Shown one piece after another: positions 5,454 through 48,570 of a stretch of 64,000 bases of DNA. A model generated the notes under the pieces. It searched no databases. It saw only the letters and a program-made list of their open reading frames with translations, and was not told the origin of the DNA. The DNA lies in NCBI GenBank assembly GCA_017557535.1, contig JAFYYM010000034.1:123795-187794 (forward strand), given 5' to 3'. Numbering within the stretch: position 1 is the first letter of the stretch; each line of letters begins with the position of its first letter. Both the position numbers and the translations under genes were made by a program. The DNA is from Bacteroidales bacterium (GTDB taxonomy: Bacteria; Bacteroidota; Bacteroidia; Bacteroidales; UBA932).

Positions 5454-6478
5454 TGGCCCTCACTGTCGAGATAGACAAGCGTTCCGGTTTCTGTGGCGGG
5501 GTTATCCGCGCCATCAGCAAAGCCGAGGAGTTCCTGGACTCACACCCCGGGAAGAAGCTTTATTCCCTCGGGGCGATAGTCCACAATGAAGCCGAACTGG
5601 AAAGACTTGGCCGGAAGGGACTCGTGACCATCGGCCATGACGACATCGGCAATATTCAAGCCCCTGAGAATGAAACGGTTCTGATTAGGGCGCACGGCGA
5701 GCCGCCATCCACTTATAAGCTCACCCGAGAGGCTGGGATCAACCTCATAGATTGCACCTGCCCTGTCGTCCTGAAACTCCAGAAAGACATCCGCGACGTT
5801 TATTCACGCCTCAATGGCGGCGTGACCCGCTCCAGCGGCTCGACCGCCTCGCTTCGCTCGGCCCCACCGCTCGCTTCGCAAAGCGAAGCTCCGGTCCCCC
5901 CTCTTAACGTGCCGAGGGTGGCAATGGTCTCGCCATCTGGACAGGCCACGCCGCCGAGAGGGCAGATCATCATCTATGGGAAGATCGGTCATGCGGAGGT
6001 GCTGGGGCTGCTGGGGCAGGTAGGAGGTGACGCGGTGGTGATTGAGAATATGGACATGCTTCTCTCAGCGCTGGAGTCCGGGACTATCAGGACGGATGTC
6101 CCGCTGGAGATATTCTCACAGACAACAAAGAGTCCGACCGAATATTCCGAGATCTGCTCTGTCTTGTCCGAGAGGGCCAAAGCCGGACTGACCGTCCACA
6201 ACACGATTTGCAAGCAGGTCGCATCGAGGCATGAGGAACTCGCCGAGTTCGCCTCATCACACGACATAATCATTTTTGTGTCAGGAGTTTCCAGTTCCAA
6301 CGGAAAAGTCCTCTGCGACCTATGCCGCTCCAGGAATCCCAGAACCTATCACATCTCAGACCCGAAGGAGATAGATCCCTCCTGGTTCGGTCCAGATGAA
6401 AGCGTTGGTGTGTGTGGCGCCACCTCCACCCCCCACTGGCTTCTAGAGGAAGTCGCCCAGACAATATTATTTGCATGA
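5453..6478 (+). CDS. ispH: 4-hydroxy-3-methylbut-2-enyl diphosphate reductase with ~47-aa in-frame insertion
   Basis: GFCGGV, IVHN, RAHG, DCTCPVV, GHAEV, FSQTT, NTIC, SSNG, GATSTP motifs. Confidence 0.95.
   Translation: MALTVEIDKRSGFCGGVIRAISKAEEFLDSHPGKKLYSLGAIVHNEAELERLGRKGLVTIGHDDIGNIQAPENETVLIRAHGEPPSTYKLTREAGINLIDCTCPVVLKLQKDIRDVYSRLNGGVTRSSGSTASLRSAPPLASQSEAPVPPLNVPRVAMVSPSGQATPPRGQIIIYGKIGHAEVLGLLGQVGGDAVVIENMDMLLSALESGTIRTDVPLEIFSQTTKSPTEYSEICSVLSERAKAGLTVHNTICKQVASRHEELAEFASSHDIIIFVSGVSSSNGKVLCDLCRSRNPRTYHISDPKEIDPSWFGPDESVGVCGATSTPHWLLEEVAQTILFA
5816..5955. repeat. 140-nt palindromic element with terminal inverted repeats, in-frame in ispH
   Basis: Left GGCGGCGTGACCCGCTCCAG (5816-5835) pairs imperfectly with right CTGGACAGGCCACGCCGCC (5937-5955); internal perfect hairpin GCTTCGC-AAA-GCGAAGC (5873-5889). 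Confidence 0.8.
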
Positions 6479-6501
6479 AAAAAGTCAATTAGTTAAATTT
6501 G
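6470..6501 (+). promoter_or_regulatory. Full Bacteroidota promoter (-33/-7) for efp
   Basis: TTTG (6470-6473), 20-nt spacer, TAAATTTG (6494-6501). Confidence 0.75.
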
Positions 6502-6539
6502 CATGATTGATGGTTATTGATTTTTAATTCATTCAGTAT

Positions 6540-7106
6540 ATGGCAACAACAGCAGATTTCAAGAACGGACTGTTCATCAGCTACAACGGCAAGCCTTGCC
6601 AGGTAGTCTATTTCCAGCATGTCAAACCCGGAAAGGGCCCCGCTTTCGTCAAGACAAAGCTCCGCAACCTCGAGAACGGAAGGATCCTTGAGAACACTTT
6701 CACCGCTGGCATGAAGATCGACGTCATCACTGTTGAGAGACGTCCCTACCAGTTCCTCTATTCCGATGAGGACGGTTTCAACTTCATGCATGAGGAGACC
6801 TTCGAGCAGATCCACCTGCCTCACGACGTGGTCGAGAATTCCGACCTAATGAAAGAGGGACAGCATGTGGAGATGATGTTCGTCGTCGAGCCTGAGGAGA
6901 AGTGCCTGACCTGCGAGCTTCCAACTTATGTGACTCTTGAGGTCACCTATGCCGAGCCCGCGGTGAAGGGTAACACCGCTTCAACAAGCGCCCTTAAGGA
7001 GGTCACTCTCGAGACCGGCGCTAAGGTGATGGTTCCCCTCTTCATCAACCAGGGAGAGAAGATCACTGTCAACACCACCGACCGCAGCTACGGGCAGAGG
7101 GTGTAG
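6540..7106 (+). CDS. efp: Elongation factor P
   Basis: HVKPGKGPAFV loop, VKGNT, VPLFI motifs, 188 aa. Confidence 0.97.
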   Translation: MATTADFKNGLFISYNGKPCQVVYFQHVKPGKGPAFVKTKLRNLENGRILENTFTAGMKIDVITVERRPYQFLYSDEDGFNFMHEETFEQIHLPHDVVENSDLMKEGQHVEMMFVVEPEEKCLTCELPTYVTLEVTYAEPAVKGNTASTSALKEVTLETGAKVMVPLFINQGEKITVNTTDRSYGQRV

Positions 7107-7129
7107 CCCTATTCTCATCATTATCAAGT

Positions 7130-7169
7130 AAAGAAAAACGGACAGCCGAATGACTGTCCGTTTTTCTTT
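7130..7169. terminator. Intrinsic terminator after efp (bidirectional architecture)
   Basis: Perfect 16-bp inverted repeat AAAGAAAAACGGACAG / CTGTCCGTTTTTCTTT, 8-nt loop. Confidence 0.85.
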
Positions 7170-7183
7170 ACGGGAAATAATGC

Positions 7184-7191
7184 TAAATTTG
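7184..7191 (+). promoter_or_regulatory. -7 promoter box for dnaX
   Basis: TAAATTTG, 6 nt before ATG 7198. Confidence 0.6.
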
Positions 7192-7197
7192 TATGTT

Positions 7198-8880
7198 ATG
7201 TCAGAATATATCGTATCAGCGAGAAAATACCGCCCGGATTCATTTGAGACACTGATCGGGCAGGACACTATAGCCCAGACCCTGAAGAACTCCATCATCA
7301 GGGGAAAACTGGCGCACGCCTACCTGTTCTGCGGCCCCCGCGGCGTCGGGAAGACGACGACAGCGAGGATATTCGCGAAAGCCATCAACTGTTCCAATCC
7401 ATCCCCTGAGATGGAACCTTGCGGACAGTGTGAGTCCTGCATCTCTTTCCAGGAAGGACGGTCATACTGCATCCATGAACTTGACGCCGCGTCGAACAAC
7501 GGAGTCGAGGACATAAAAAACCTGATGGACCAGGTGCAAATTCCACCGCAGGTCGGGAAATATAGCGTCTACATCATAGACGAGGTCCACATGCTCTCGA
7601 CCGCCGCCTTCAACGCCTTCCTCAAAACTTTGGAGGAGCCCCCGGCACACGCCATATTCATCCTGGCCACCACAGAGAAGCACAAGATACTCCCCACTAT
7701 CCTCTCAAGGTGCCAGACCTACGACTTCAACAGGATATCAATCCCTGACATGGTCTTCAACCTGAGGAATATAGCCGCGAAGGAGGGTGTAAAGATAGAC
7801 GACGAGTCGCTGCATGTCATCGCCCAAAAAGCCGACGGCGCCATGAGAGACGCTCTCACGATTTTCGACCAGACGGTGGCGTTTTGCGGCACGGACGTGA
7901 AATATGAGGACGTGATCCGGAATCTGGGTGTCCTGGACTATGACTATTCTTTCGCCCTCGTGGATGACTTCCTCGCAGGGGATTACGGTAAGGCTCTCCT
8001 GACCTTTGACGAGATCCTTTCCAAAGGTTTCAACGCCTTGCACTTCTGCTCCGCTCTCAGCTCACACCTCAGGGACCTGATGGTTACTAAGAACGGAGGA
8101 TTGGAAGCTTTGCTTGAGCTCCCTGAATCCCTTAAAAGCCGGTATGTGGAGCAGGCGACCCGCTGCTCCCTCAAATTCCTTTACGACGCGCTCAGCGTGA
8201 CCACAGCCTGCGAGGCTGGTTACAAGCAGGCAGTCAATCCCAGACTGCACATAGAGTTCGCCCTGATGAAGCTCAGCTTCCTGATGAAGGCTCCGGGGAC
8301 GGCCGATCAGATCGGCCATGACGTGAAAGTGGCGGCAGGAGCTGAAGGGAGGGAGATCAGCAAACCCGCGGAACCAACTCAAGCTTTGCCTCGGGAGCGG
8401 AAACGTCCGGCTAAGACTGGCTCCGCCCTGTCGCTGAATGCGATCCTGGAAGAGGAAGAAACCAAGAAAGTCGAGAAAAAAGCCCCGGTCATCTCTGATG
8501 AGATGCCTGATGATGAGACCATTTTGAGTGCCTGGAAAGCGATTCCCGAGGAATTCAAGGCGATGAGCCAGATCCGCCTTGCCAACACACTGGAAAACGC
8601 CGAGGTCGAGATCGAGACCACCGGGGATGGCAAGACGGTCACATTCAAGGTCAGTAACGAGGCCCAGAGGAAATGGATTCAGGAGAACAGGCTCCTTTCT
8701 CTGGAAGGAAATTTGCAGAAGAAAACCGGATCCTCCAAGATCCGCCTTGAGGTAGGTGTGATTCCCATGGAGGAGAAAGAGGCCCAGCCCTATACGGATC
8801 AGGAGAAGGCCTCCGCCCTCATGGGACAGAACGGAGAACTGAGGAACCTTGTGAAGGATTTCGGGTTGGAGACAAGATAA
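7198..8880 (+). CDS. dnaX: DNA polymerase III subunit gamma/tau
   Basis: Start re-assigned to MSEYIVSARKYRP; GPRGVGKTT, CGQCESC, DEVHML, FLKTLEEPP, ILSRC. Confidence 0.95.
   Translation: MSEYIVSARKYRPDSFETLIGQDTIAQTLKNSIIRGKLAHAYLFCGPRGVGKTTTARIFAKAINCSNPSPEMEPCGQCESCISFQEGRSYCIHELDAASNNGVEDIKNLMDQVQIPPQVGKYSVYIIDEVHMLSTAAFNAFLKTLEEPPAHAIFILATTEKHKILPTILSRCQTYDFNRISIPDMVFNLRNIAAKEGVKIDDESLHVIAQKADGAMRDALTIFDQTVAFCGTDVKYEDVIRNLGVLDYDYSFALVDDFLAGDYGKALLTFDEILSKGFNALHFCSALSSHLRDLMVTKNGGLEALLELPESLKSRYVEQATRCSLKFLYDALSVTTACEAGYKQAVNPRLHIEFALMKLSFLMKAPGTADQIGHDVKVAAGAEGREISKPAEPTQALPRERKRPAKTGSALSLNAILEEEETKKVEKKAPVISDEMPDDETILSAWKAIPEEFKAMSQIRLANTLENAEVEIETTGDGKTVTFKVSNEAQRKWIQENRLLSLEGNLQKKTGSSKIRLEVGVIPMEEKEAQPYTDQEKASALMGQNGELRNLVKDFGLETR
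8299..8323 (-). repeat. CGTC-tagged REP-like palindrome inside dnaX
   Basis: Minus strand CGTC-ATGGCCGATC-T-GATCGGCCGT; perfect core GGCCGATC-A-GATCGGCC at 8301-8317. Confidence 0.6.
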
Positions 8881-8892
8881 AGCGTATTCGAA

Positions 8893-9714
8893 ATGAAACT
8901 TCATTGCGAGAATCTCGTCAAGAAATACGGCATCAGAACTGTCGTCAAAGGTGTCTCTATGGAAATCAACCAGGGAGAGATCGTAGGCTTCCTTGGACCT
9001 AACGGAGCCGGCAAGACCACCAGCTTCTATATGATCACAGGACAGATTGTGCCTAATGGCGGCAGGGTGTTCCTGGACGACGAGGACATCACTGAGCTCC
9101 CCATGTACAAGAGAGCCCAAAAGGGTATAGGCTATCTTCCCCAGGAAGCTTCAGTCTTCCGTAAGATGTCTGTTGAAGACAATATCATGTCCGTGATGGA
9201 GATGTCTGACATGAAAAAGGAGGAAAGGAAGGAAAGGTTAGAGAGCCTGATCAGTGAGTTCAATCTCTCAAAAGTGAGAAAGAGCCTCGGTATCCAGCTC
9301 TCAGGAGGTGAGAGGCGCCGTTGCGAGATAGCGAGGGCGCTTGCCATTGATCCGAAGTTCATCCTTCTTGACGAGCCTTTCGCCGGAGTCGACCCTATCG
9401 CCGTGGAAGACATCCAGTTCATCATCGCCAAGCTTAAGTACAAGGACATCGGAGTCATTATCACTGATCACAATGTCGGCGAGACGCTGGCCATCACCGA
9501 TAGGGCTTACCTGTTGTACGAAGGATCCATCCTTCAGCAAGGTACTCCTGAGTCGCTCGCGTCTGACGAGGATGTGCGCACTAAATACCTTGGATCCGGA
9601 TTCATCCTGAAGAAATCCGTCTCCGTTGAGCGGGCAAAGGCCGAGCATCAGGCCTTGGAGGAGGCTAAGGCCAAAGCCCTGGAGGAGACGATGGTTGAGA
9701 ACCCCTTAAACTAA
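8893..9714 (+). CDS. lptB: LPS export ABC transporter ATP-binding protein
   Basis: [44 protein letters not shown]. Confidence 0.93.
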
Positions 9715-9722
9715 AAAATATC

Positions 9723-10580
9723 ATGAGACGGACTTTATTAATATCCCTGCTGGCCTTGATGGCAGCCCTAATGATTCCATCAGACCTTTTTGGACAAGCC
9801 CAGATATTCACCAGGAAAGAGAAGCTTAAGGACCTGACCGCCAAGACTGTGAAGGTTGTCTTGAGCGGCGACGAGATTTTCGACGAAGCCTTGAAGCAAG
9901 CTGTCACCACATCATGGACAATCTCTCCTTATGAGTTCTGCACCAGTGAGGAATTCCAAAAGATAAAGACTGACAGCAAGTTCTACTTCCTTATTGTCGT
10001 GAAAGGACAGCAAAGAAAAGAAGCGGAGCCAGGCATCGACCTGCTCACCTTCGTCAAAGGTGGGGAAGGTGCCGACAAGTCCATCGAAGACATGCTTGAG
10101 GTTGTGACCTTCCCTCTCCGTTCCGCCGTGGATCCTTCCGGAAGGGAGTTCCTTCTCCTTCCCGCCTTCCTGACGATCATGCAGGAACACGCCCAAAACC
10201 TGACAAGTTCCGAGGTCAAGGCGTACACACCTCTTGGGGCAAATGACTCCAAGAAATTGAGGATGAAACAGATCTATTTCTGCGAGGAAGACTTCGCCCC
10301 TCAAGTGGACGATAAGACAGTGAGTTCGCTGGATGAGGATATATTCGTGAAAGAAGACGAGGAAGAAGTCGATGAGGTGTTCTCGAATGGCGTTTTCAAC
10401 GCCGTTGTGAGCTATGTTGTCGCCCCTTCCGAACCTGTCAATGGATCAGTTTGCTATAAGATGCTCATTGGCGCTGACAACCATAAGCTGTATTGGTACA
10501 AGAAGCATAAGATCTCTCCTCGTCAAGGTGCGGGATTCCTCGACAGCGACCTGAAAGCCATTAAACTTCTGAGGAAATAA
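9723..10580 (+). CDS. Hypothetical exported protein
   Basis: 285-aa ORF, hydrophobic signal-peptide-like N-terminus, coupled to neighbours; no motif recognised. Confidence 0.75.
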   Translation: MRRTLLISLLALMAALMIPSDLFGQAQIFTRKEKLKDLTAKTVKVVLSGDEIFDEALKQAVTTSWTISPYEFCTSEEFQKIKTDSKFYFLIVVKGQQRKEAEPGIDLLTFVKGGEGADKSIEDMLEVVTFPLRSAVDPSGREFLLLPAFLTIMQEHAQNLTSSEVKAYTPLGANDSKKLRMKQIYFCEEDFAPQVDDKTVSSLDEDIFVKEDEEEVDEVFSNGVFNAVVSYVVAPSEPVNGSVCYKMLIGADNHKLYWYKKHKISPRQGAGFLDSDLKAIKLLRK

Positions 10581-11809
10581 TGCTCGTTGGCAAAGCCCCT
10601 TGCGGGTTGCGATACGCTGTGAGAAGGAGCGGAAGAGCTGTAGGCTACTGCTCCCTGACTATCAAATGCGGAACCAGGGACGAAGGTTCCCACCACAGTG
10701 GTATCGCCCACTTCACCGAGCACACAATATTCAAAGGCACATCTAAAAAGAGCGCCAAAGTCATCAACAGTTATCTTGATCGGCTTGGGGGCGATCTGAA
10801 CGCGTTCACCACCAAAGAGGAGATTGTACTCCACTCCACAGTATTGAAAGAGGACCTCGGGAAAGCAGCCGCATTGCTGCTGGAGCTAGCCACATGCCCC
10901 ATATTCCCGGAGGAGGAAATCTCGATAGAGAAAGGAGTCGTGATCGACGAGATAAGCTCTTACAAAGACTCCCCCGCCGATGATGTGTTCGACAAATTCG
11001 AAGAGACCCTTCTGGCTGGTCATCCCCTTGGGAGACCTATCCTCGGAACCGCTGCTAGCGTGAGGAAAATCTCCGCTGAAGAGCTGAGGGCATTTGTCAA
11101 AGAGCGTTTCACTCCCGGGAACATGGCTCTCGCGATTGTCGCTGACATTGATGAGAAAAAGATGGAGCAAGGGGTGCTGAGACTCTCCGAAAAAGTATTT
11201 GACGGCTCCTGGTCCGAATCACCAGAGCGTATTCTCTGCCCGGTGGACACCCCCGCCTTGTTCAAAAAGACCGTGGATAAAAGGCACCATGAGGTCAATG
11301 CGGTGATCGGAGGATTGGCTCCTTCCCTTTATGACCAGGAAGGTCGATTCGCGGCCATTCTCCTGGCCAACATTGTCGGGGGACCTGCCTCGAATTCCAA
11401 ACTCAATGAACTCTTGAGGGAAAGGAACGGATGGGTGTACGGTGTCGAGACCTCTTACACCCAATACTCCGACACTGGTGTGATGGCAATATCGATGGGC
11501 TGCGACCGTTCCAATCTGGAGAAATGCTTGAGAGGTGTGGATAAAGTGATAAAGAGAATACAAGACGAGCTTTTGTCAGACTCGGCCATGAGAGCAGCCA
11601 AGAAGCAGCTTCTTGGTCAACTGGCTATCAGCTCAGACAACGGAGAGACCCAATGCCTCTCCATGGGGAAAAGCCTTATTTCTTTTGGAAACGTTTCCAC
11701 TGACCTTCAGAACAAGGAAGCTATAGAGGCGGTCACGGCCGATCGTGTACGTGAATCCGCCATGAGAATATTCAACCCGGAAACTTTATCATCCTTGATT
11801 TTTTTATGA
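10580..11809 (+). CDS. M16 family (pitrilysin-like) zinc peptidase
   Basis: HFTEH inverted zinc motif, LNAFTTKE, VIDEI. Confidence 0.9.
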   Translation: MLVGKAPCGLRYAVRRSGRAVGYCSLTIKCGTRDEGSHHSGIAHFTEHTIFKGTSKKSAKVINSYLDRLGGDLNAFTTKEEIVLHSTVLKEDLGKAAALLLELATCPIFPEEEISIEKGVVIDEISSYKDSPADDVFDKFEETLLAGHPLGRPILGTAASVRKISAEELRAFVKERFTPGNMALAIVADIDEKKMEQGVLRLSEKVFDGSWSESPERILCPVDTPALFKKTVDKRHHEVNAVIGGLAPSLYDQEGRFAAILLANIVGGPASNSKLNELLRERNGWVYGVETSYTQYSDTGVMAISMGCDRSNLEKCLRGVDKVIKRIQDELLSDSAMRAAKKQLLGQLAISSDNGETQCLSMGKSLISFGNVSTDLQNKEAIEAVTADRVRESAMRIFNPETLSSLIFL

Positions 11810-13248: not shown

Positions 13249-13252
13249 TTGC

Positions 13253-13260
13253 TATTTTTG
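13253..13260 (+). promoter_or_regulatory. -7 promoter box upstream of GH109 gene
   Basis: TATTTTTG in the intergenic gap. Confidence 0.5.
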
Positions 13261-13313
13261 GAATGATGTCTGTCATTCAGTGCGAAACAAAGAATTAATA
13301 TTACCATAACATC

Positions 13314-14699: not shown

Positions 14700-14703
14700 A
14701 TAG

Positions 14704-15705
14704 TTATAATACTTCCAGAGTCTTTCCCGTGTCTTTCAGGGAAAGGATGACCGGGTGACTGAAACCAGAATTAGGCCGGTGGAACACTAATTTGATATTC
14801 CCGTAAAAGTCACGGAATAACATTGAGTGTCCACCGTCCTCTTCGATTATCGGCTCATCATCGCATGTCCATGGACCTGCGAGCTTGCCTGAAGCTGAAC
14901 GGGCTATACCGACACAGTACGTGTCCTTGAAAGAGGACCATAGCATCACCAACTCACCACCGCTAGTACGGTACAGGAATGGCCCGTCAGATACATAAGA
15001 CTTCCGGATACCGCCATTCTCGTCTTTCCAGTCAGAAAGCCCTTTTGTCCACTTGGCGTCAGAAGCCTTGAACAAGACGGAGGGCTCGCCAATGGTTCCA
15101 GACAAGTCTTCTTTCAGTCTTATCACCTCATAAGTTCCATCGACAATTTGGACCCATTCATGGCAGAATACCATGAATGGGACTCCATCCTCTACCCATA
15201 GAGTCCCGTCCAAGGCCATATAATCCTTGGGAGTAGTGACATCTTTCCCCAGCGGGAGAAAAGGACCGGAGGGACTGTCCGCACGGAATATCTGTGTCCC
15301 ACGATATGTGAAAGACGGCCAACCTTCCACCTTATCTGCCCAAGTCTTATCAGTATTGAGGGTCGCGAAGAGGTACCACTTCCCTTTATAGTAGTGAACT
15401 TCTGGAGCCCATACCACACCGGTAAGTGAATTATCCTCCGGAACGGTGAACACCCTCTCAGGGCCATACCATTTCTCAAGGTCGCCGCTCCGGAACACTT
15501 CCACGCCTCCCAATCCCTCAGCAGTCGTCGAACTTCGATAGAGATAATAAGTCTTCGTGTTTTTGTCAGCCACTATGAACGGATCCCTGCAGTAGATGCT
15601 GTCAAGGACAAGATAATCACCTGTTTCCCATGATTGATGTCCCCGGCCACAACTAGCCAGGGACAAAACCAACAAAATAGATGGAATGATTCTGCTTAAA
15701 GACAT
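14704..15705 (-). CDS. GH43 family glycoside hydrolase, lipoprotein
   Basis: Lipobox LSLASC; RDPF, WAPEV, LDGT, HEW, SDGP, GGH; last gene of arabinose operon. Confidence 0.85.
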   Translation of the reverse strand: MSLSRIIPSILLVLSLASCGRGHQSWETGDYLVLDSIYCRDPFIVADKNTKTYYLYRSSTTAEGLGGVEVFRSGDLEKWYGPERVFTVPEDNSLTGVVWAPEVHYYKGKWYLFATLNTDKTWADKVEGWPSFTYRGTQIFRADSPSGPFLPLGKDVTTPKDYMALDGTLWVEDGVPFMVFCHEWVQIVDGTYEVIRLKEDLSGTIGEPSVLFKASDAKWTKGLSDWKDENGGIRKSYVSDGPFLYRTSGGELVMLWSSFKDTYCVGIARSASGKLAGPWTCDDEPIIEEDGGHSMLFRDFYGNIKLVFHRPNSGFSHPVILSLKDTGKTLEVL

Positions 15706-19607: not shown

Positions 19608-19634
19608 AGATTCTTCGCTTAGCTCAGAATGACA
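19608..19634 (-). repeat. TGTC/CGTC-tagged REP-like palindrome between the SSS transporter gene and araD
   Basis: Minus strand TGTC-ATTCT-GAGCTAAGCGA-AGAAT-CT; begins 2 nt after the transporter stop. Confidence 0.65.
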
Positions 19635-19635
19635 G

Positions 19636-21330
19636 TTACCAGAAATAGATGTAAAAAGCGACTGTGACAGCCAGGATAATGCAGGAGTGGACGATATCCC
19701 ATGCGCCCCAAGATGCTCTCGTGGCGGCTTTCTGTTCCGGAGTGGCCGTGCCGAAGCATAGTCCCCGTACTTGCTCATCGGAGGGTTTCGGAGTCAACAT
19801 GGTCACCACAAAAGCTAGCGCCACACAGAAGAGGAACATCCAAACACAGAATGCGTAGACATTCATCTCATTGAAAATGAATGTGAAAGCGTTGTGGGCC
19901 TCGGGATTGATTATCATCGTGACCAAACGAGTCAAGCCAAGCGCCAGGCCGGCGATCAAGGTCCACATACCAGCCTTGGGCGAAGTCCTTTTCCAGCATA
20001 CTCCCAGAAGGAACACTGCGGCGATGGACGGGGCGACAAGGCTCTGGACGCTCTGGATGTAGTTATACAGACTTTTACCCATCTTCTGGATCACCAGGAT
20101 CCAGAGAACTCCGAAGACAACCACTATCACTGTGGCCAACCTGCCGATACGGACCAGTTTCTTCTCCGGGGTGTCAGGGTTGCGACGCTTATAGATGTCA
20201 ATCGTGTAAAGCATCGCTGATGAGTTGTACAGCGAAGCTAGTGAACTCATCAGCGCGGCGAGAACACCGCAGATCACTACTCCCTTGAGACCGACAGGCA
20301 ACAATGTGTTGACCAACATCGGGAAAGCGAGATCAGGATTGGCGAGAGTGCCGTCCGCCTGCAAACCGAGGGCAGAAGCGAGCATCTGGCCGGTCTGGGA
20401 ATCAGGAGTCTTAGTCAGGGCAAATGCTATCATTCCAGGGATCAGGAACAAAAACACCGGAAGGAGTTTGAGATATGCCCCGAATATCGTTCCTCTGCGA
20501 GACTCCTTCTGATCCTTGCCGGAAAGGACTCTCTGGACGATGAATTGGTCTGTACACCAGTACCAGAAGCCAATGATGGCTGATCCGAACAAGGCTCCAT
20601 ACCAAGGGAACTCGGTATCCTTCCCGCTACGCATCAGAGTTGTCATCGAGTCTCCGTATTCATTGACCGGTTGCGCCGCACAGATATCCATCATCGCATT
20701 CCACCCTCCCAGTTCCTTGAGGCCGATCCAAAGGATGACCAGAGAGCCTAACAACAAAATAGGGGTTTGAAGGACCGAGGTCTTCAGGACGGACTCCATG
20801 CCTCCTATGATCGTGTAGATAGCTGTGATTACCACCAGAGCCAACGCCGCTACCCAGAAATTGATACCCAGTAACGCGTTAAGCGCCAGACCTCCGGCCA
20901 TGACGGTCACGGAGACTTTTGTGAGGACATAACTCGCTAGCGAGAGGTATGTCAATATTCCACGGCTTTCCTTGTTGTAGCGCTTCTCCAGGAACTCCGG
21001 CATCGTGTAGACCATACTCCTCTGGTAGAAGGGCACGAACACCCAGCCGAGAATCAGGATCATCCAACCCTGGATCTCCCAGTGGGCCTGGGCCATTCCG
21101 GCCGAGGCACCGGTGCCCGCAAGACCGATAAGGTGCTCGGAGCCTATGTTGGAAGCGAATATTGACGCGCCTATCGCAAGCCATGTAGCCGAACGCCCGT
21201 CAAGGAAATAGTCGCCGGACGTCTCCTTCTTCTTCCGGAAGACGTCCACGACAATCCAGACCATCGCCGCGAAGAATATGGCGATGACAATCCAGTCCCA
21301 AGACTGGAGGGTGATTCGGTTCAGATCCAT
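19636..21330 (-). CDS. Sodium:solute symporter (SGLT-like), probable arabinose transporter
   Basis: ASIFASNIGSEH, TMPEFLEKRY, WYWCTDQFIVQR, many TM helices; operon context. Confidence 0.88.
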   Translation of the reverse strand: MDLNRITLQSWDWIVIAIFFAAMVWIVVDVFRKKKETSGDYFLDGRSATWLAIGASIFASNIGSEHLIGLAGTGASAGMAQAHWEIQGWMILILGWVFVPFYQRSMVYTMPEFLEKRYNKESRGILTYLSLASYVLTKVSVTVMAGGLALNALLGINFWVAALALVVITAIYTIIGGMESVLKTSVLQTPILLLGSLVILWIGLKELGGWNAMMDICAAQPVNEYGDSMTTLMRSGKDTEFPWYGALFGSAIIGFWYWCTDQFIVQRVLSGKDQKESRRGTIFGAYLKLLPVFLFLIPGMIAFALTKTPDSQTGQMLASALGLQADGTLANPDLAFPMLVNTLLPVGLKGVVICGVLAALMSSLASLYNSSAMLYTIDIYKRRNPDTPEKKLVRIGRLATVIVVVFGVLWILVIQKMGKSLYNYIQSVQSLVAPSIAAVFLLGVCWKRTSPKAGMWTLIAGLALGLTRLVTMIINPEAHNAFTFIFNEMNVYAFCVWMFLFCVALAFVVTMLTPKPSDEQVRGLCFGTATPEQKAATRASWGAWDIVHSCIILAVTVAFYIYFW

Positions 21331-39298: not shown

Positions 39299-39340
39299 AT
39301 TTATAGCTTTTATGAGTTATCACTTAGGCCGCGAATATCG

Positions 39341-39348
39341 CAAAAATA
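39341..39348 (-). promoter_or_regulatory. -7 box for FKBP-DUF3127 unit
   Basis: TATTTTTG on minus strand. Confidence 0.5.
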
Positions 39349-39429
39349 ATTGAGATTTACATTATTAATATTGATTTGGCTTGCCATTTACAAAATCTTT
39401 GACTATATTTATGAAAACCACATCCAATC

Positions 39430-41637: not shown

Positions 41638-42485
41638 ATCGTCACCATCTTAAGGCGGCGGTTCTCGAAATGTCCCAGCCGCCGGAAACCGAACATTTTC
41701 ACATACTGGGCGAAATAATCGAACTTCATCCCCACCTGTTCTGGATTGTGTGAATCGGAACCCAGGCAGATGATGTCCCCTCCAAGCTCCATGTACCTGA
41801 TAAGGATGTCACGGTCAAGCTCAGGTGTCCTGAGCCCATACTGCTTATATGTCTTGGTATTGATCTCAAGCCCTTTACCGTTCTCTATCAGATATTTCAA
41901 TATCTCGTCAATAAGGCCGGGGAAATCCCTGTACTGGATACTTTCCTTAGGATAAGGGGCATACCGGACAACATAATCGAAATGACCCATGATGTCGAAA
42001 TCGCCCAACTTCCTCATCTCACGCAATAAAGTCTCAAGATAACGGCCATAGGCTTCCTTCCAATTCTTGCCCTTGTAATAAGGTCCGAAATAGGGATCCG
42101 TGTCCTCAAGATAATGTACAGAGGCGATGACCTGGTCAAATGTCTGGGCGGCGAGGATATTCCTGTTGAGCTCACGGCTATCCTCGTAAAGGCCTATCTC
42201 TATCCCCTTGAGAACCTTGAACTTCTTCGCGGCGGCCCTTCCAAAAGCCCCTTCGGCCACAAGGCCGCTGACCCGGTCAATCTCCGCCTGCTGGGCTTTC
42301 ACGTCAAAGACCTCGCAGACTATTGGCTCGAACTCCTCTTTCATCTTGGGGACAAAGTAATCGCAATGGTCGGTGAAACAAATCCCTCCAAAACCTTTAT
42401 CCACCGCCGCCTTAACGCTTTTCTCTACTGTGGTGGCGCCTCCGTCAAAAGAAAACTGGCTATGGTTGTGTGTGTCGAAAAACAT
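41634..42485 (-). CDS. PHP-domain histidinol-phosphatase family protein
   Basis: [28 protein letters not shown]. Confidence 0.8.
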
Positions 42486-42490
42486 ATTCA

Positions 42491-42518
42491 CGAATATAGC
42501 GTTTTTTTATTAATTTTG
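42491..42518. promoter_or_regulatory. Back-to-back -7 boxes for two divergent genes
   Basis: Minus TATATTCG (42498-42491) 5 nt before ATG 42485; plus TAATTTTG (42511-42518) 5 nt before ATG 42524. Confidence 0.55.
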
Positions 42519-42523
42519 TGTTT

Positions 42524-43186
42524 ATGATTACCCTGGGATATAAAACAAAGTTCGACAGCGTCACCAGAGCCGCCGCTGCCATAGGTATCGGACTGGTGAT
42601 GGCCTTCGGAGGCAACGCCCCCGCTTTAGTTGTTAAGATCATAGCGATCCTGCTTGTCGTGGCGGGTGTCGCCTCTTTGATTTACGGATTGGTGAAAAGC
42701 AAGGAGAATGGTGTTTACCAATTGCTTCTGATTAACGCCGGTCTGGACATCGCGCTTGGCCTTCTGTTGTTCTTCAACCCGCAATGGATAGCTGGAGTGA
42801 TAGTATATGCGATAGGTATCGTCCTCATCCTTTTCGGAGGTCTTCAGCTTATCGCTTTAGCAGGAGCCATGAGCCTTCTGGGAGCGGGCTTCTCATCCCT
42901 CCTCCTTTCGGTCCTGGCTGTCGTGGGAGGTGCCTTCCTACTATTCAACCCGTTCACGATCAATGTGATGAGCGTAATAGCCGGATGTCTTCTGATAGTT
43001 TATGGAGTCGCTGAGCTGATCTCCGCTTTCCGTATGCAGAAAGCCAGGGAGGAATTCGAGATAAGACGGGCCGCGACACCTTCTGGTCCGAACGTCCGAG
43101 AGACAGGGTCAACCAGTCTGGCTGACGCCAAAGAAGTCAATTACGAGAAGATAGAAGAGCCTGAGGACCAGGACGACATGAACTGA
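42524..43186 (+). CDS. DUF308/HdeD-like membrane protein
   Basis: About six short TM segments with repeated LLFFNP/LLFNP motif; polar tail. Confidence 0.75.
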   Translation: MITLGYKTKFDSVTRAAAAIGIGLVMAFGGNAPALVVKIIAILLVVAGVASLIYGLVKSKENGVYQLLLINAGLDIALGLLLFFNPQWIAGVIVYAIGIVLILFGGLQLIALAGAMSLLGAGFSSLLLSVLAVVGGAFLLFNPFTINVMSVIAGCLLIVYGVAELISAFRMQKAREEFEIRRAATPSGPNVRETGSTSLADAKEVNYEKIEEPEDQDDMN

Positions 43187-43188
43187 TC

Positions 43189-45285
43189 ATGATTCCACGG
43201 GAGACGGTACAGAAGATTCTGGACACCGCGCAAGTCGAGGAAGTGGTGGCCGATTTCGTCTCGCTTAAGAAGCGCGGGGCGGAATGGTGGGGCTGTTGTC
43301 CTTTCCACAACGAGAAGACCCCCTCCTTCCATGTCGTTCCCGCGAGAGGAATATACTACTGCTTCGGTTGCCACAAAGGAGGATCCGCCGTGGGTTTCGT
43401 GATGGACCATGAGCACATGTCTTATCCGGATGCCCTGAGATATCTGGCAAAGAAATATAATATCGAGGTGGTTGAGGAAGAGCAGAGCGCCGAGGAACTA
43501 GCCGCCCGACAAAGAAACGAGAGCCTCTACCTCGTCTCGGAATTCGCCGAGGAATTCTTCAAGGAACAGCTCTCGAAAGGAGAGGGCAAAGCCGTGGGAC
43601 TCAATTATTTCCACAGCAGAGGTCTGGAGGATGCCACCATTGGGAAATATGGCCTGGGATGGGCTCCGTCCGACCGACACGCCTTCACAGACGCCGCCAA
43701 GGCTAAAGGATATAAGGACGAATATCTCCTTGAGACAGGACTCTGCGCCAAATACGACGACAAGCCCGACATCCATGACAGGTTTGTCGAAAGGGTCACC
43801 TTCCCTATCCATTCGATTAGCGGCAGGATCATCGGTTTCGGAGCAAGGACACTTAAATCAAAAGAGGAAGGGAAACCCTACGCCAAATACGTCAACTCCA
43901 AGGAGAGCGCCATCTATGTCAAGAATCAATCATTGTACGGAATATGGTTCGCTAAGGGCGAGATGGCCAAGAAAGACAAGTGTTTCCTTGTCGAAGGATA
44001 CCTGGATGTTCTCTCCATGCATCAGCTGGGAATCACCAACGTGGTGGCTTCCAGCGGTACCGCATTGACTGACGGGCAGATACGCCTTATAGGACGTTTC
44101 ACGAAGAACGTCACCATCATGTATGACGGTGACGAGGCCGGCGTCAAGGCCGCCCTTAGAGGTATCGACATGTTCCTACGCCAAGGAATGAACGTCAAGG
44201 TCGTGTTGATCCCGGACGGGGATGACCCTGACTCATACGCCCGGAAACACACTTTGGAGGAAGTGGAGGACTTCATCTCTGGCAACGAGCAGGATTTCGT
44301 GGACTTCCAGAGTTCCCTACTGCTAAGGGACACGGAGAATGATCCTCTCCGGCGCGCTGACGCGATAAATGAGATAGCCGACACTGTGGCCCAGATTTCG
44401 GACGGAGTCAAAAGGGAAACCTATATCGACTTCCTCAGTCGCAAGTTCGACATCCGGAGGACCGTCCTGGAGGATAGGGTCGGCTTGACAAGGACGAAAC
44501 TCTTAACCCAGACCGGACAGCAGTCCGAGCCTGACCGAGTCCATCCTCGCCCCACTGCGGCTGAGTACGGCCTAGGCTCGACTGCTGCTCCGGCTATCAC
44601 GCAAGATTCGGAGCGAAGCGACGCAGGGAGTCTGAGGGGAACGCCCCTCAGTCCCCCTAGGGGGCAAGGGGGGTTGACGTTTTCTTCCAGTGACGACCTA
44701 TCGTCACTGGAAGAGAACCCGATAATGGCAAAGGCTGAGCGGGATCTGCTGAGCTTCATCCTGACCTATGGCACCACCAGACTTGAGTTCCAAAGTGACT
44801 CTGAATTCTACACCGAGGATGAGGAAGATGTCCAGACAGTGTTCGAGTTCATTGGCCAAGCCATAGAGGCAGACGGTACCGTATTCGCCAACAAGGCTTA
44901 CCAGGACACCTATGACGCCTATTCGGAAGAGTATTATAATGGCTATTCCCAGAATGATATCGTGAGACATCTCATGGACGGCGAGGATAGGACGGTGGCA
45001 TTCGTCGCGGCTCAACTCTCGACAGAAGAGAGATACGACTTGTCCATCAAGAATCTCCGCGACGCCATGATGTCAAAGGGGTCATGGCTGACGAAATTCG
45101 TCCCCAAGTCAATCCTCGTATTCCAAGTCTGCCGCCTCGAGGACAAAGAGCACTCCCTTAAAGAAGAGCTTAGAGAAGCACAGGACATCGGGGACCAGAA
45201 CCGTGAGATGGAGATATTGAAGAGCCTGGTGAATCTGCGCAAAGCCATCAAAACCGTCAAAGTTCGCCTCGGACGGGAAAAATAG
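43189..45285 (+). CDS. dnaG: DNA primase with palindromic insertion in the linker
   Basis: CPFHNEKTPSF, CFGC, FGARTL, KYVNS, VEGYLDV, YDGDEAG, DPD. Confidence 0.96.
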   Translation: MIPRETVQKILDTAQVEEVVADFVSLKKRGAEWWGCCPFHNEKTPSFHVVPARGIYYCFGCHKGGSAVGFVMDHEHMSYPDALRYLAKKYNIEVVEEEQSAEELAARQRNESLYLVSEFAEEFFKEQLSKGEGKAVGLNYFHSRGLEDATIGKYGLGWAPSDRHAFTDAAKAKGYKDEYLLETGLCAKYDDKPDIHDRFVERVTFPIHSISGRIIGFGARTLKSKEEGKPYAKYVNSKESAIYVKNQSLYGIWFAKGEMAKKDKCFLVEGYLDVLSMHQLGITNVVASSGTALTDGQIRLIGRFTKNVTIMYDGDEAGVKAALRGIDMFLRQGMNVKVVLIPDGDDPDSYARKHTLEEVEDFISGNEQDFVDFQSSLLLRDTENDPLRRADAINEIADTVAQISDGVKRETYIDFLSRKFDIRRTVLEDRVGLTRTKLLTQTGQQSEPDRVHPRPTAAEYGLGSTAAPAITQDSERSDAGSLRGTPLSPPRGQGGLTFSSSDDLSSLEENPIMAKAERDLLSFILTYGTTRLEFQSDSEFYTEDEEDVQTVFEFIGQAIEADGTVFANKAYQDTYDAYSEEYYNGYSQNDIVRHLMDGEDRTVAFVAAQLSTEERYDLSIKNLRDAMMSKGSWLTKFVPKSILVFQVCRLEDKEHSLKEELREAQDIGDQNREMEILKSLVNLRKAIKTVKVRLGREK
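44512..44594. repeat. 83-nt hairpin element, copy 1 (in dnaG)
   Basis: 71/83 nt identical, ungapped, to 47938-48020; 18-bp outer stem with two single-base bulges. Confidence 0.9.
44611..44718. repeat. Cluster of hairpins in dnaG following the 83-nt element
   Basis: GAGCGAAGCGA (44611-44621); CTGAGGGG-AACG-CCCCTCAG (44632-44651); CCCCCTAGGGGG (44653-44664); perfect 14-bp stem 44683-44714. Confidence 0.75.
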
Positions 45286-45413
45286 CCGACCTTGGGTGTC
45301 ACAGCGGCCGGAGATGTGTATCCATTGAATATCAATTGTTTATCTTTCTGATTATCAACAACGAAACGTCTCCCGCTTGAATGACGGGCAGTCCAAAGAG
45401 TCAGGGGCGAGGG

Positions 45414-46178
45414 TCAGAACTTGAAGGAGAGGCCGCCGGTGAAGGAAAAGAACCAGCGGAGGGGCTGCTTTAAAGAGGTTTTGGTCCCAATGTCAGAGCC
45501 GTTCTCGAACCGTACGGATTCGGTGTTGACGATGTAATTCCTGGTCAGGTTGTAGTGGATGGCCGGACTGAGTTTCAGGTCAAACCGCCAGAGGCGATAG
45601 TTCAGGCAAGTTCCGGCATCAAGGGTGAGGGAAAAGCGTCCGTTCCTCTCAGTCCATGTCCGGTCGGTATTCAAATAACCCGGTCCCCAACTGGCCGTCG
45701 AGACCGGAGAACTCTCTCCGGACACATAACCCGGTGTCACCCCTGTGAAGAACTCAGCTTGGCTGAACAAGTTGGCGATGAAAGCGGCCAGCGCTCCCCG
45801 AAGAGGGTTGGAATATCCCATAATGGCCTCATAACCAAAAGTTTCTCCAGCAGCGATCGCTCCGCTTCTCACCCGTCCGTCCGTGTTTCTGGCCGGAGTG
45901 CGATAGGCGAAGGCTATCGGTATTCCGAAAGCATTGTCAACTTCGGCAACACGGGAAGCCAGTTGAAATCCCGTCCGGTATCCTATTCCGGTCGAGTAAA
46001 AATGCCCGTAACTCACCCCAAACAATACATCTGATTCCTGTCCTTTGTACATGGGAGTATAGACACCGGCATAGAAGCCGATGTCATCCGACAAGTTCGA
46101 GCGCTTTTCTGCCGCGGTCTGGGCATTGGCGCAGAAGGAAAGAATCAGCAAAGACGGGATAATAATGAGGTGTCTCAT
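45414..46178 (-). CDS. Hypothetical outer-membrane beta-barrel-like protein
   Basis: Signal peptide, alternating aromatic/glycine strands, C-terminal ...GGLSFKF. Confidence 0.65.
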   Translation of the reverse strand: MRHLIIIPSLLILSFCANAQTAAEKRSNLSDDIGFYAGVYTPMYKGQESDVLFGVSYGHFYSTGIGYRTGFQLASRVAEVDNAFGIPIAFAYRTPARNTDGRVRSGAIAAGETFGYEAIMGYSNPLRGALAAFIANLFSQAEFFTGVTPGYVSGESSPVSTASWGPGYLNTDRTWTERNGRFSLTLDAGTCLNYRLWRFDLKLSPAIHYNLTRNYIVNTESVRFENGSDIGTKTSLKQPLRWFFSFTGGLSFKF

Positions 46179-46262
46179 ATCGTTTTGACTTGTGAACTTG
46201 CTTTATGCAGATGCGTGAGGCAACAAATAGTGTTCCATGTCAAAACATCCGAGTGTTTTTGC

Positions 46263-46270
46263 TACCTTTG
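46263..46270 (+). promoter_or_regulatory. -7 box for metG
   Basis: TACCTTTG, 20 nt before ATG 46291. Confidence 0.6.
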
Positions 46271-46290
46271 CAGTTTGAAGTCAATTGTAT

Positions 46291-48570
46291 ATGGAAAAGA
46301 ATTTCAAGAGAACGCTTGTGACCTGCGCGTTGCCGTACGCCAACGGCCCCGTGCATATCGGCCATCTGGCCGGAGTCTATGTGCCTGCCGACATATTCGT
46401 GAGATACAAGAGGATGAAGGGCGAGGATGTCCTTTTCATCTGCGGCTCAGACGAGCATGGTGTGCCGATCACAATCAAGGCAAGGGCTAATGGTGTGACT
46501 CCGCAGGATATCGTGGACAAGTACCACGGCATCATAAAGGACTCGTTCACAAGGCTGGGGATCAATTTCGACATTTATTCCCGCACCACCTCCAAGGTGC
46601 ATCACAAGAACGCCTCTGAGTTCTTCCGCGAGCTCTACGACAAGGGCAAGTTCATCACCAAGGAGAGCGAGCAGTACTATGACCCTGAGGCCAAGACTTT
46701 CCTGGCCGACAGGTACATTGTCGGCACTTGCCCCAAGTGCGGCAATCCGAACGCCTATGGCGACCAGTGCGAGAAGTGCGGAAGCACCCTTAGTCCCGAG
46801 GAACTCCTCAACCCGAAGTCCAAACTCAGCGGCGCCGAGCCGATAAAGAAGAAGACCACACACTGGTATCTTCCTCTGGACAAGTACGAGCCTTGGCTCC
46901 GTGAATGGATTCTCGATAACCACAAGGAGTGGAGGTCCAATGTCTACGGCCAGTGCAAGTCATGGCTGGATGGCGGACTTCAGCCTAGAGCCGTCAGCCG
47001 CGACCTGGACTGGGGTGTCCCAGTGCCTGTGGAGGGTGCGGAAGGCAAGGTACTCTATGTATGGTTTGACGCCCCGATTGGCTATATATCCAACACTCAG
47101 GAGCTTCTGCCACAGAGTTGGGAGAAATGGTGGAAGGATGATGACACCCGTCTCATCCATTTCATCGGCAAGGACAATATCGTCTTCCATTGCATCGTCT
47201 TCCCTTCGATGCTGAAGGCCCGCGAAAACTACATCCTTCCGGACAATGTGCCTTCCAATGAGTTCCTCAACCTCGAGAGCGACAAGATCTCGACCTCCCG
47301 CAACTGGGCTGTCTGGCTCAATGAATATGTCGACGACTTCCCCGGCCAGGAGGACACCCTTCGTTACGTTCTCTGCGCCAATGCTCCCGAGACCAAGGAT
47401 AATGACTTCACCTGGAAGGATTTCCAGCAGAGGAACAACAGCGAGCTGGTGGCCATCCTGGGCAATTTCGTCAACAGGGCAGTTGTCCTGACACAGAAAT
47501 ATTTCGGAGGCAAGGTGCCGGAGAACCTGAAGCCGGAAGCTATTGATGCTGAGACACTCTCGCAACTTCCCGAGCTTCGCCGAAGCCTCGAGGCTAATCT
47601 TGAAGGCTTCCATTTCAGGGAGGCTCTGAAAGACGCCATGAACATAGCCCGCATTGGTAACAAATACATCTCTGACACCGAACCTTGGAAGGTCGCCAAG
47701 TCCGACATGGACAGGACCGCCTCGATCCTCTACACCTCGCTGCAGATATGCGCCAATCTCGCTATCGCATTTGAGCCGTTCACTCCGTTCTCGGCAGAGA
47801 AACTGAGAGGGATACTGAAGGTTGGATTGGACGCTGGTTTCGACCATCGCTCCGGCGAGGGTGAGCCAACGGTGAACTTCTACAAGCCAGGCGAATGCCG
47901 CGCACTCCATACGGCCGGACAGCCGCTAACTGAAACGGCCGGACAGCCGTTCGAGCACGGCCGCGTCCATCCTCGCTACGCTGCGGCTGAGTACGGCCTA
48001 AGCTCGACGGCTGCTCCGGCCAACTCGGCTGAATGTCCGGTGCTGACATGGGACGACTTGGGACGTGGGGATATCCTGCCGGTCGGACATGAGCTCGGTG
48101 AGGCTGTCCTGCTGTTCAGCAAGATCGAGGATAATGTCATCGATGCCCAGATCGACAAATTGAACGCCACCAAGCAAGCCAATGAGGCTGCCGCCAAGGC
48201 CGCTGAGGCGGAGGAAGCCGCCCATAAGGTCGAGCCTCAGAAGCCTGAGGTCACCTTTGAGGACTTCGGAGCTATGGATATCCGTACCGCCACCGTGCTA
48301 GAGGCTGAACGGGTTCCCAAAACTGACAAGCTCCTCAAACTCACGATCGACACCGGTATTGACCAAAGGACGATAGTCTCGGGCATAGCCGAGTACTATT
48401 CCCCGGAAGACATGCTCGGAAAGCAAATCTGCATCCTGGCTAACCTGAAGCCCAGGATGATCCGCGGCATCGAGTCCAAGGGAATGATCCTTATGGCAAA
48501 ACAGGGTGACGGGACAATGCGTCTCGTCACCCCGAGTGAAGCCGTGTCAAACGGCGCTGTTATCGGCTGA
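46291..48570 (+). CDS. metG: Methionyl-tRNA synthetase with ~70-aa insertion and C-terminal tRNA-binding domain
   Basis: [11 protein letters not shown] (HIGH), GSDEHG, CPKC..CEKC knuckle, YVWFDA, KISTS (KMSKS-like), GIESKGMIL. Confidence 0.96.
47938..48020. repeat. 83-nt hairpin element, copy 2 (in metG)
   Basis: GCCGGACAGCCGTTCGAGC ... GCTCGACGGCTGCTCCGGC arms; 71/83 identical to dnaG copy; same reading frame. Confidence 0.9.

Follow-up and report, generated by a model that had tools for sequence, protein, structure and literature searches.

In-frame hairpin DNA elements, probably mobile and non-autonomous, inside conserved genes of a Bacteroidales genome

The DNA analysed here (the window, 64,000 nucleotides of a Bacteroidales genome) contains the conserved genes ispH (5453-6478), dnaX (7150-8880), dnaG (43189-45285) and metG (46285-48570). 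A first-pass annotation had placed GC-rich hairpin elements, with the reading frame left intact, inside all four of these housekeeping genes; elements were found in ispH, dnaG and metG, and the dnaX assignment did not hold. The elements and hairpins located below by coordinates are all on the + strand.

In ispH, a family A element forms a 140-nt hairpin (5816-5955) built of a left arm (5816-5845), an 84-nt core (5846-5929) and a right arm (5930-5955), the borders of the core being set by comparison of full and arms-only alleles. This member of a 24-copy family adds ~45 amino acids (about residues 121-165), which are missing from all 13 same-genus orthologs aligned, and structure prediction points to disorder in this stretch, with pLDDT values below 50 for residues 123-167. 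In metG, a family B element (47939-48020) lies between the anticodon-binding and tRNA-binding domains. It is 84-87% identical to the family B copy of dnaG and is missing from 13 orthologs; in a close relative, G421, the site is empty and its flanks are 92-93% identical. A 24-nt segment just before this copy (47911-47934) encodes, as read from the sequence, TAGQPLTE, followed by TAGQPFEH, and its first 15 nt (ACGGCCGGACAGCCG, 47911-47925) are repeated at 47935-47949, overlapping the left arm of the element. The dnaG gene carries three features. The first is a family B element in the linker, in sense orientation (44513-44594), which encodes GQQSEPDRVHPRPTAAEYGLGSTAAP. The second, at about 44605-44677, is one of six genomic copies of family C, composed of the box GAGCGAAGCGAC, the hairpin CTGAGGGG/CCCCTCAG and the palindrome CCCCCTAGGGGG; its peptide (SERSD.GSLRGTPLSPPRG) is also found in the IspH loop of other species. 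The third is a core-less perfect hairpin (44679-44718) with a 14-bp stem at 44683-44714 and the loop CCTA, which may be an arms-only remnant, judging by its likeness to an arms-only IspH allele, P0017. The dnaG linker is hypervariable in the ortholog alignment, so the empty site is less clean there than elsewhere.

The dnaX palindrome (8299-8323) was rejected as an inserted element: its stem is only 7 bp long, it belongs to no repeat family, only 19-23-nt matches to it occur at two other genomic places, and it is kept as native sequence in one ortholog. In that ortholog a family A copy directly adjoins the palindrome.

A recurring core among the elements had been proposed, and this was corroborated by the box TCGCTTCGCT, which is common to all families and occurs 55 times in the genome, against an expectation of ~5 and 3-6 occurrences in codon-shuffled genomes; 34 of the 55 fall within or close to an A, B or C copy. 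The core variant that had been assigned to an intergenic REP at 19614-19624 proved to be a member of a mini-family, AGATYCTTCGCTNNGCTCAGRATGACA, of ~10 genomic copies. It is part of an intergenic mini-hairpin, AGATTCTTCGCTTAGCTCAGAATGACA (19608-19634), which holds the shared box in its loop.

The expectation of many more copies beyond the 64 kb was borne out. Over the whole genome, family A, to which the ispH element belongs, has 24 members, family B, the type found in dnaG and metG, has 29 and family C has 6, which makes 59 copies at a density of about one per 57 kb in this rumen-type Bacteroidales genome, whose short-repeat content consists mostly of these families. Several contigs terminate within A/B/C repeats. 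When coding and intergenic copies were counted, 45 of the 59 (~76%) were found inside stop-free frames of at least 200 amino acids, in both orientations and several frames, with unrelated conserved hosts such as FtsK, TruB, TldD, ALDH and MatE among others; A/B/C copies also occupy intergenic sites. Relative to the host gene, family A is in sense orientation in 8 cases and antisense in 9 in genome G000, and across species the numbers are 15 and 27, with five of the six reading frames in use. Every coding copy keeps the frame and has no stop codon in the frame that is read, and the stop-containing frames (23 of 24 and 27 of 29 copies carry the stops) were used in no instance. The frame choice of family A is narrower than avoidance of stop codons alone demands.

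Ortholog alignment, suggested earlier as a check, revealed empty sites in same-genus orthologs for 13 host genes, among them ispH, metG, RsmF, ArgD, GH3, MetH (two sites), MatE, ALDH, AroC and an Fmt fusion. Occupancy differs even among the four closest genomes, where the copy number in KsgA is 2, 1, 0 and 0, G000 alone has a filled ispH site and metG is empty in G421. Beyond these relatives, the family A core was found at more than 113 loci in ~50 uncultured rumen and gut Bacteroidales genomes. Among relatives, the element in the IspH loop may be full, antisense, C-type, arms-only, left-arm-only or missing, and these states need 26 changes on the tree. Two ispH alleles that are 98.0% identical differ by exactly 111 nt, and the arms-only allele P0017 lacks, relative to the full allele, precisely the apical 84-nt core. 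The IspH indel modules, of 84, 111 and 27 nt, are all multiples of three, and a 5-nt direct repeat, CGACC, is present at one polymorphic indel.

The unit contains a conserved structured core of 40-85 nt with the box GAGCGAAGCGAG, which caps a stem of 20-35 bp; the two arms of this stem are complementary to each other and yet differ from copy to copy. Folding energies are -48.5 and -38.4 kcal/mol with native arms, compared with -24.0 and -28.1 kcal/mol with chimeric arms. Conservation of the 20 nt of arm adjoining the core (CCAGCTCYGGYGGCTCGACC) extends across unrelated genes and species, which indicates that the core-proximal arm travels with the element. The idea that one of the arms derives from native target sequence through inverted copying was largely rejected, since these 20 nt recur and since orthologs lack the entire hairpin at the ispH, ALDH, MetH and ArgD sites; the rejection applies to the core-proximal 20 nt, and the distal arms remain compatible with such copying. 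In G000 and in the cross-species copies, the family A core opens with the tetranucleotide CGTC or CGCC. Next come the box hairpin, which has a GC-rich stem of 5-7 bp and the loop TTC, and then CCCC(A/T)CC. The RNAalifold consensus from an alignment of mixed family A copies was poor because the variable hairpin misaligns, and the helices were assessed instead by variant listing and by the folding of chimeric arms. In the variant listing, the box helix and the P3 helix covary across species. Read by eye, the three core variants A, A2 and C9:67187 are all compatible with a pseudoknot (CCCNN/NNGGG plus GTGCC/GGCAC). The G-rich strand has the stabler fold in 45 of 53 copies.

Neither a target-site duplication nor a fixed flanking target motif was found among the B copies, and CGACC at the one indel is the only flanking direct repeat seen. 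No autonomous element with the same ends as A, B or C was found; a candidate in L100, a pair of inverted family A copies separated by 3.2 kb, encloses an amylase gene instead of a transposase and was discarded. The earlier statement that the window holds no transposase stands for the RAYT-like Y1 kind, which is what the screen covered: four RAYT-like (Y1_Tnp) genes are present in the genome, all outside the window. Their products are ~300 amino acids long, with a long C-terminal extension and a weak Y1_Tnp match. A search for such a gene flanked by the same repeats had been suggested; each of the four genes instead has private hairpins on its flanks, which are not related to A or B, and a single C copy is located 94 nt downstream of one gene. 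Across 12 genomes, RAYT-like genes and elements co-occur only loosely.

Two known systems are alike in kind. Rickettsia palindromic elements (RPEs) comprise several families of palindromic repeats, each ~100-150 nt long, that interrupt many unrelated conserved genes without breaking the frame; their peptides are placed where the fold tolerates them, and no transposase is known for them (Ogata et al. 2000, reviewed in PMC10969869). The present elements share this size, the palindromic nature, the division into families and the in-frame position in unrelated conserved genes. The likeness is one of function and not of membership, the host here being a Bacteroidales metagenome-assembled genome (MAG): RPEs reside in an obligate intracellular alphaproteobacterium, whereas the elements described here belong to free-living gut and rumen Bacteroidales, have a conserved structured core at the apex of copy-specific arms, and use both orientations and up to five reading frames. 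CGTC REPs are present in Bacteroidetes, inside replication and repair genes and without a dedicated transposase (Di Nocera et al. 2013, PMC3733652); their tag is the tetranucleotide CGTC, or TGTC/CCTC, right at one end of the stem-loop. In published examples the stem, 8-9 bp long, opens with A-T pairs, the loop measures 4-5 nt and a CCA tail follows; some REP dimers are nested in longer palindromes (PMC3733652). The analogy to RPEs and CGTC REPs drawn in the first-pass annotation fits. The family A core has the tag CGTC (CGCC in many copies) directly before a short stem-loop. This stem-loop, however, has a shorter, GC-rich stem, a 3-nt loop and no such tail, and makes up just the first module within a larger core; moreover, ~76% of the copies are intragenic, compared with a minority of CGTC REPs.

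Three other known classes were compared. As in REPIN/RAYT systems, hairpin repeats and Y1 (HUH) transposase homologs coexist in one genome and the RAYT-like genes are flanked by hairpins, but these are private to each of the four genes and bear no relation to A or B, and REPIN/RAYT repeats are predominantly extragenic, in contrast to the A, B and C copies. Classical MITEs (Correia/NEMIS, ERIC, BOX, Nezha) are likewise small, non-autonomous and multi-copy, with inverted-repeat ends and occasional in-frame fusions; here, neither a target-site duplication nor a related insertion sequence was found, and it is the middle that is conserved between copies while the ends vary. PATEs derived from IS200/IS605 have subterminal hairpins, no terminal inverted repeats or target-site duplications, insertion beside a fixed tetra- or pentanucleotide, and a genomic Y1 TnpA. 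In the present genome no target-site duplication was seen and Y1-like genes exist; no fixed flanking motif was seen in the B copies, the ones searched for it.

We consider A, B and C likely to be hairpin DNA elements that are mobile but non-autonomous, comparable in kind to RPEs and CGTC REPs and predicted to be translated as disordered loops. The 59 copies, the empty sites and the use of both orientations agree with the initial proposal that this lineage has its own non-autonomous hairpin families in coding loops. Copies have spread through the genome, in coding and intergenic DNA, and those in genes survive only where their length keeps the frame, the frame contains no stop and the site is a loop or an inter-domain linker, adding a predicted disordered peptide of ~25-50 amino acids. 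Movement may take place through a folded, single-stranded form of the G-rich strand, with an enzyme acting in trans; the genome's long RAYT-like Y1 (HUH) transposases are possible candidates. The complementarity of the arms may be maintained by template-switch correction of quasi-palindromes, and decay by hairpin-stimulated deletion would leave solo arms or arms-only hairpins. A possible objection to this reading is that the structure of the core, with several covarying helices and a possible pseudoknot, exceeds the obvious needs of a transposase end. The missing target-site duplications and autonomous partner, the private hairpins around the RAYT-like genes, the loose co-occurrence and the narrow frame choice of family A also speak against it.

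A variant of the main mechanism, which we regard as rather unlikely, is that only the core is mobile and either targets the apices of existing hairpins or makes its arms by inverted duplication of the flanks. It would account for the allele P0017, which equals the full allele minus exactly the apical core, for the copy-specific distal arms, and for the net inserts in RsmF and GH3, whose lengths are near that of the core. Some intergenic copies lie within terminator-like A-tract/T-tract hairpins, in the loop of perfect inverted repeats, and REP dimers nested in palindromes provide a precedent (PMC3733652). The arm stretch CCAGCTCYGGYGGCTCGACC, conserved in unrelated genes and species, nevertheless travels with the element, and at the ispH, ALDH, MetH and ArgD sites the orthologs have no part of the hairpin. 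A bolder form, to which we give little credence, would make the family A core an undescribed structured module (tag, box hairpin, variable hairpin and pseudoknot-like 3' box) of ~50 rumen Bacteroidales species that homes to hairpin apices or builds its own arms by inverted flank copying, and excises with hairpin footprints in coding DNA. If true, this would be a transposition chemistry undescribed for bacterial small repeats.

The covariation of the box hairpin, P3 and the arms, the single by-eye pseudoknot that fits all three core variants, the strand asymmetry of folding and the terminator-like setting of some intergenic copies could also suggest that the cores are functional structured RNAs (regulatory, protein-binding or small ribozymes) spread by selection and not by mobility. 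The mixed orientation of family A makes this very improbable, as roughly half of the copies would give an RNA of the wrong polarity; besides, Rfam covariance models gave no match at the gathering score over the window and nothing meaningful on the elements at E values up to 10. It is highly improbable that no transposition is involved, and that inter-strain recombination or gene conversion acts together with local palindrome formation, or that the peptides are selected linker modules. The states of the IspH hotspot could be exchanged by recombination and the arms appear homogenised in place, but dozens of unrelated genes, as well as intergenic sites, carry these cores, in either orientation and several frames; recombination between homologous genes could not have placed them there, and the peptides vary with the frame and are predicted to be disordered. 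Finally, stable GC-rich hairpins within essential genes might be spliced like introns or bypassed like the byp elements of Magnusiomyces mitochondria, but an insert that is removed or bypassed has no need of the frame-keeping, stop-free coding copies and three-fold indel modules observed, and this is scarcely credible.

The repeats have practical consequences: they break MAG assemblies and inflate the apparent divergence of the marker genes ispH, metG and dnaG. To our knowledge, in-frame selfish DNA in essential genes has largely been held to be peculiar to Rickettsia and a few REP-rich genomes. A phenomenon of the Rickettsia type is now found in abundant free-living gut and rumen Bacteroidales, in roughly 50 species, and single sites at which natural alleles range from full through partial to empty constitute a tractable system for asking how such elements move without an evident transposase, how palindromes persist in coding DNA and how much novelty they add to protein loops.

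Four genes in the window, ispH (5453-6478), dnaX (7150-8880), dnaG (43189-45285) and metG (46285-48570), had been named in the first-pass annotation as carriers of in-frame hairpin repeats; the observation stands and the analysis supports the interpretation, dnaX excepted. A repeat scan of the window revealed an 89-nt stretch common to dnaG (44513-44601) and metG (47939-48027) at 84% identity. Against the whole assembly (3.38 Mb in 139 contigs, 51% GC, with the window at C9:123795-187794), the ispH, dnaG and metG elements each gave 25–31 BLAST hits, and iterated nhmmer delimited three families: A (ispH type, 24 copies in the genome), B (dnaG/metG type, 29 copies) and C (a second module in dnaG, 6 copies). 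The predicted abundance of further copies genome-wide is thus borne out. The dnaX palindrome (8299-8323) differs from all three, which leaves three of the four genes confirmed. It has a 7-bp stem and matches only two other genomic sites, over 19–23 nt, and in an ortholog it is conserved as native sequence with a family A copy directly adjoining; the short matches and the native conservation rule it out as a repeat-family member. In this ortholog, DnaX of a related MAG (L095:16752-18509), the family A copy is antisense and lies right behind the short palindrome.

When the genome is compared with itself, most of the short dispersed repeats belong to families A and B. Perfect hairpins with a stem of 12 bp or more are some eight times as frequent genome-wide as expected (204 versus ~25), and through them further A-like variant families were uncovered. 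The box TCGCTTCGCT, a short motif common to the families, is strongly enriched, occurring 55 times compared with 3–6 times in shuffled sequence, and a mini-family of ~10 copies, of which the intergenic site at 19608-19634 is one member, has it in the loop. Two other perfect hairpins were seen in the window. One, of 12 bp (20215-20255; CGCTGATGAGTT ... AACTCATCAGCG), has the box-like AGCGAAGC in its loop and lies within a 564-residue open reading frame (19636-21330, minus strand); the other, of 17 bp (58535-58584; TATAACCTACGTTCTTT / AAAGAACGTAGGTTATA), is AT-rich, unlike families A, B and C, and sits at the 5′ end of a minus-strand open reading frame (57186-58622). Several contigs end in or beside a repeat, a family A copy (C49:210751-210835), a family B copy (C73:67440-67504) or unclassified short repeats (C66:1-57 and C105:1-60), so the repeats probably fragment the assembly.

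Aligned together with their flanking sequence, the copies prove to have a conserved core between two arms, which pair within a copy and differ between copies. With the 35 nt to either side of the core folded, native arms gave −48.5 kcal/mol in family A and −38.4 kcal/mol in family B, against −24.0 and −28.1 kcal/mol when the left arm was joined to the right arm of another copy. Some copies, such as two in MetH and one in an Fmt fusion, have arms in common with compensatory changes, showing that a core can carry its arms along. In 21 of 24 family A and 24 of 29 family B copies, the more stable fold is that of the G-rich strand, the complement of the ispH-coding strand. On this strand the box reads GAGCGAAGCGAG; GCGAAGC is a DNA mini-hairpin of unusual stability. 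The order of the family A core, taken from copies in relatives and the cross-species set, is a CGTC/CGCC tag, the box hairpin, CCCC(A/T)CC, a variable hairpin (P3) and a conserved 3′ box, CCCCYCTCTTANNGTGCCGAGGGTGGCA. Variants of the box hairpin keep their pairing (GCCGC/GCGGC, GTCGC/GCGAC, GTCTCGC/GCGAGAC, GTCGGC/GCCGAC), as do the more than 15 different stems of P3. Three core variants were also read by eye as having covarying pairs, CCCTC/GAGGG, CCCGT/ACGGG and CCCGC/GCGGG, accompanied by GTGCC/GGCAC or GTGGCC/GGCCAC; such pairs would form a pseudoknot. No Rfam family matches the elements.

Coding context was assessed from the longest stop-free frame spanning each copy. Consistent with the proposal that the elements colonise coding loops with the frame kept, 45 of 59 copies (17 A, 25 B and 3 C, in 35 open reading frames) lie in frames of at least 200 residues; one family A copy among them precedes the first start codon in its frame and is therefore probably non-coding. 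The hosts are ordinary conserved genes, checked with Pfam (aldehyde dehydrogenase, a CCG/4Fe-4S protein, MatE, a HAD hydrolase, a transglutaminase-like protein, TruB, FtsK, TldD and a ComEA-like protein) or identified by eye from sequence (AtpG, KsgA, MetH and IspE, with two copies each, and AtpB, PriA, ParC, AroC, ArgD and several glycoside hydrolases). The inserts fall in the gaps between Pfam domains or else interrupt a domain at one of its loops. Both orientations occur (8 sense and 9 antisense in family A, 17 and 8 in family B), and stop-carrying frames are essentially unused. Sense copies of family B are all in the single open frame and antisense copies in three frames. In family A, usage is essentially restricted to one frame per orientation, though four are mostly open. 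AroC (C58:132864-133010) has a nested or clustered insertion of 54 residues, in which an antisense family A copy precedes the partial left end of a second, oppositely oriented family A copy.

Empty sites in orthologs, which the first-pass annotation had proposed looking for, were seen in same-genus genomes. The inserts of ispH (~45 residues) and metG (~29–37 residues) are absent there, and a survey with a concatenated query, followed by retrieval of the ortholog regions, found empty sites in RsmF, ArgD, a GH3 enzyme, MetH (site b), MatE, aldehyde dehydrogenase, a periplasmic binding protein, AroC and the Fmt fusion; the linkers of MetH (site a), E2 and FtsK vary in length among relatives. In one relative, MetH carries a different insert of ~76 residues (L074, G018:C69:79350-80200) at the linker site of our family A copy, which suggests a common hotspot. 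Occupancy was also compared with three other family B-bearing genomes (G268, G366 and G421). KsgA carries two family B copies here and one in G268, and neither G366 nor G421 has any. G421 also lacks the copy at the metG site and at one further site, where its flanks are 82–95% identical. The ispH copy is missing from all three genomes, and the TruB and PriA copies are shared. This mix of shared and private sites is as continuing gain and loss would produce.

The IspH loop provides an allele series. Among 120 IspH homologs from metagenomes, the loop holds family A (sense, antisense or partial), family C, a pair of arms lacking the core (P0017) or the left arm by itself (19 clusters), or is empty, as in P0005, which is 93% identical to the IspH of the window outside the insert. 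Comparison of the nucleotide sequences of three alleles shows that they differ by exact modules, namely a core of 84 nt at the apex of the hairpin and a right arm of 27 nt. The full P0002 and the left-arm-only P0010 are 98.0% identical over the gene; the 111 nt that distinguish them are flanked by a CGACC direct repeat. A loop-masked maximum-likelihood tree needs 26 state changes, with all eight full copies sister to a non-full one. The left-arm-only alleles are read as deletion remnants rather than native sequence, since the 20 nt of the left arm next to the core are found again in family A copies from other species and unrelated genes. An AlphaFold2 model (23-sequence alignment) predicts the IspH fold confidently except for residues 123–167 (pLDDT 21–44), without secondary structure between helix 104–120 and strand 171–175.

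BLAST against 24 same-genus genomes detected family A in 6, as weak relatives only, and did not detect family B; in a separate sampling, the family B core was present in 4 of ~57 same-genus genomes and in none of 36 other genera of the bacterial family. An exact scan for the family A 3′ box, with one genome per GTDB species, returned more than 113 loci. Among the matches listed, every one comes from an uncultured Bacteroidales MAG of the rumen or gut (cattle, goat, sheep, yak, buffalo, deer, reindeer and horse), one of these being labelled Candidatus Cryptobacteroides sp.; the ispH copy of MAG RUG579 (L132) is near-identical to that of the window. Of 79 cross-species copies analysed, all with long copy-specific arms, 42 lie in frames of at least 200 residues (27 antisense, 15 sense), 21 in frames of 100–199 residues and 16 are non-coding, some of these in the loop of A-tract/T-tract inverted repeats resembling bidirectional terminators. 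Five of six frames are used, with preference for an antisense frame rich in Gly, Thr, Ser, Ala and Glu.

The elements are multi-copy, present or absent at orthologous sites, found in both orientations and located in loops or linkers with the frame kept. They would move as DNA, the moving form probably being single-stranded and folded on the G-rich strand, and selection would filter coding insertions for frame, lack of stops and tolerance of the site. Template-switch correction of quasi-palindromes, an established mutational mechanism, may keep the arms complementary, and hairpin-stimulated slippage may cause decay. As for an enzyme, a RAYT gene flanked by the same repeats had been suggested. 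Four RAYT-like genes of ~300 residues were found outside the window (C9:215644-216914, C95:90528-93087, C24:285-2299 and C56:59685-61370), with a weak Y1_Tnp match and H-U-H and Y-x-x-x-N-P-like motifs. Each is bracketed, as RAYTs are, by hairpins, but these are its own private repeats, forming REPtron-like units, and the flanks contain no family A or B repeats; family C is represented by one copy, 94 nt downstream of a single gene. Among 12 genomes, the three without a RAYT-like gene are also without a family A match by same-genus BLAST, and several have RAYT-like genes and no detectable family A.

The closest analogues are the Rickettsia palindromic elements and the CGTC-tagged REPs. The latter are present in Bacteroidetes, including inside genes for replication and repair, can form part of longer palindromes in which they are nested, and have no dedicated transposase (PMC3733652); in-frame MITE fusions have also been reviewed (PMC10969869). 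The Bacteroidales elements work like the first two, yet miss several defining features of each known family: they fail the stem and loop geometry of CGTC REPs, are without the cognate-RAYT flanks typical of REPINs, and do not have the TIR, TSD or parent insertion sequence of MITEs. Compared with all of these, they have in addition a larger structured core, seated at the apex of arms that are specific to each copy. No prior description in Bacteroidales was found in the literature searched, whose coverage is incomplete. The elements matter for their abundance in a major gut lineage, for their structured core, and for an allele series that makes the mechanism testable.
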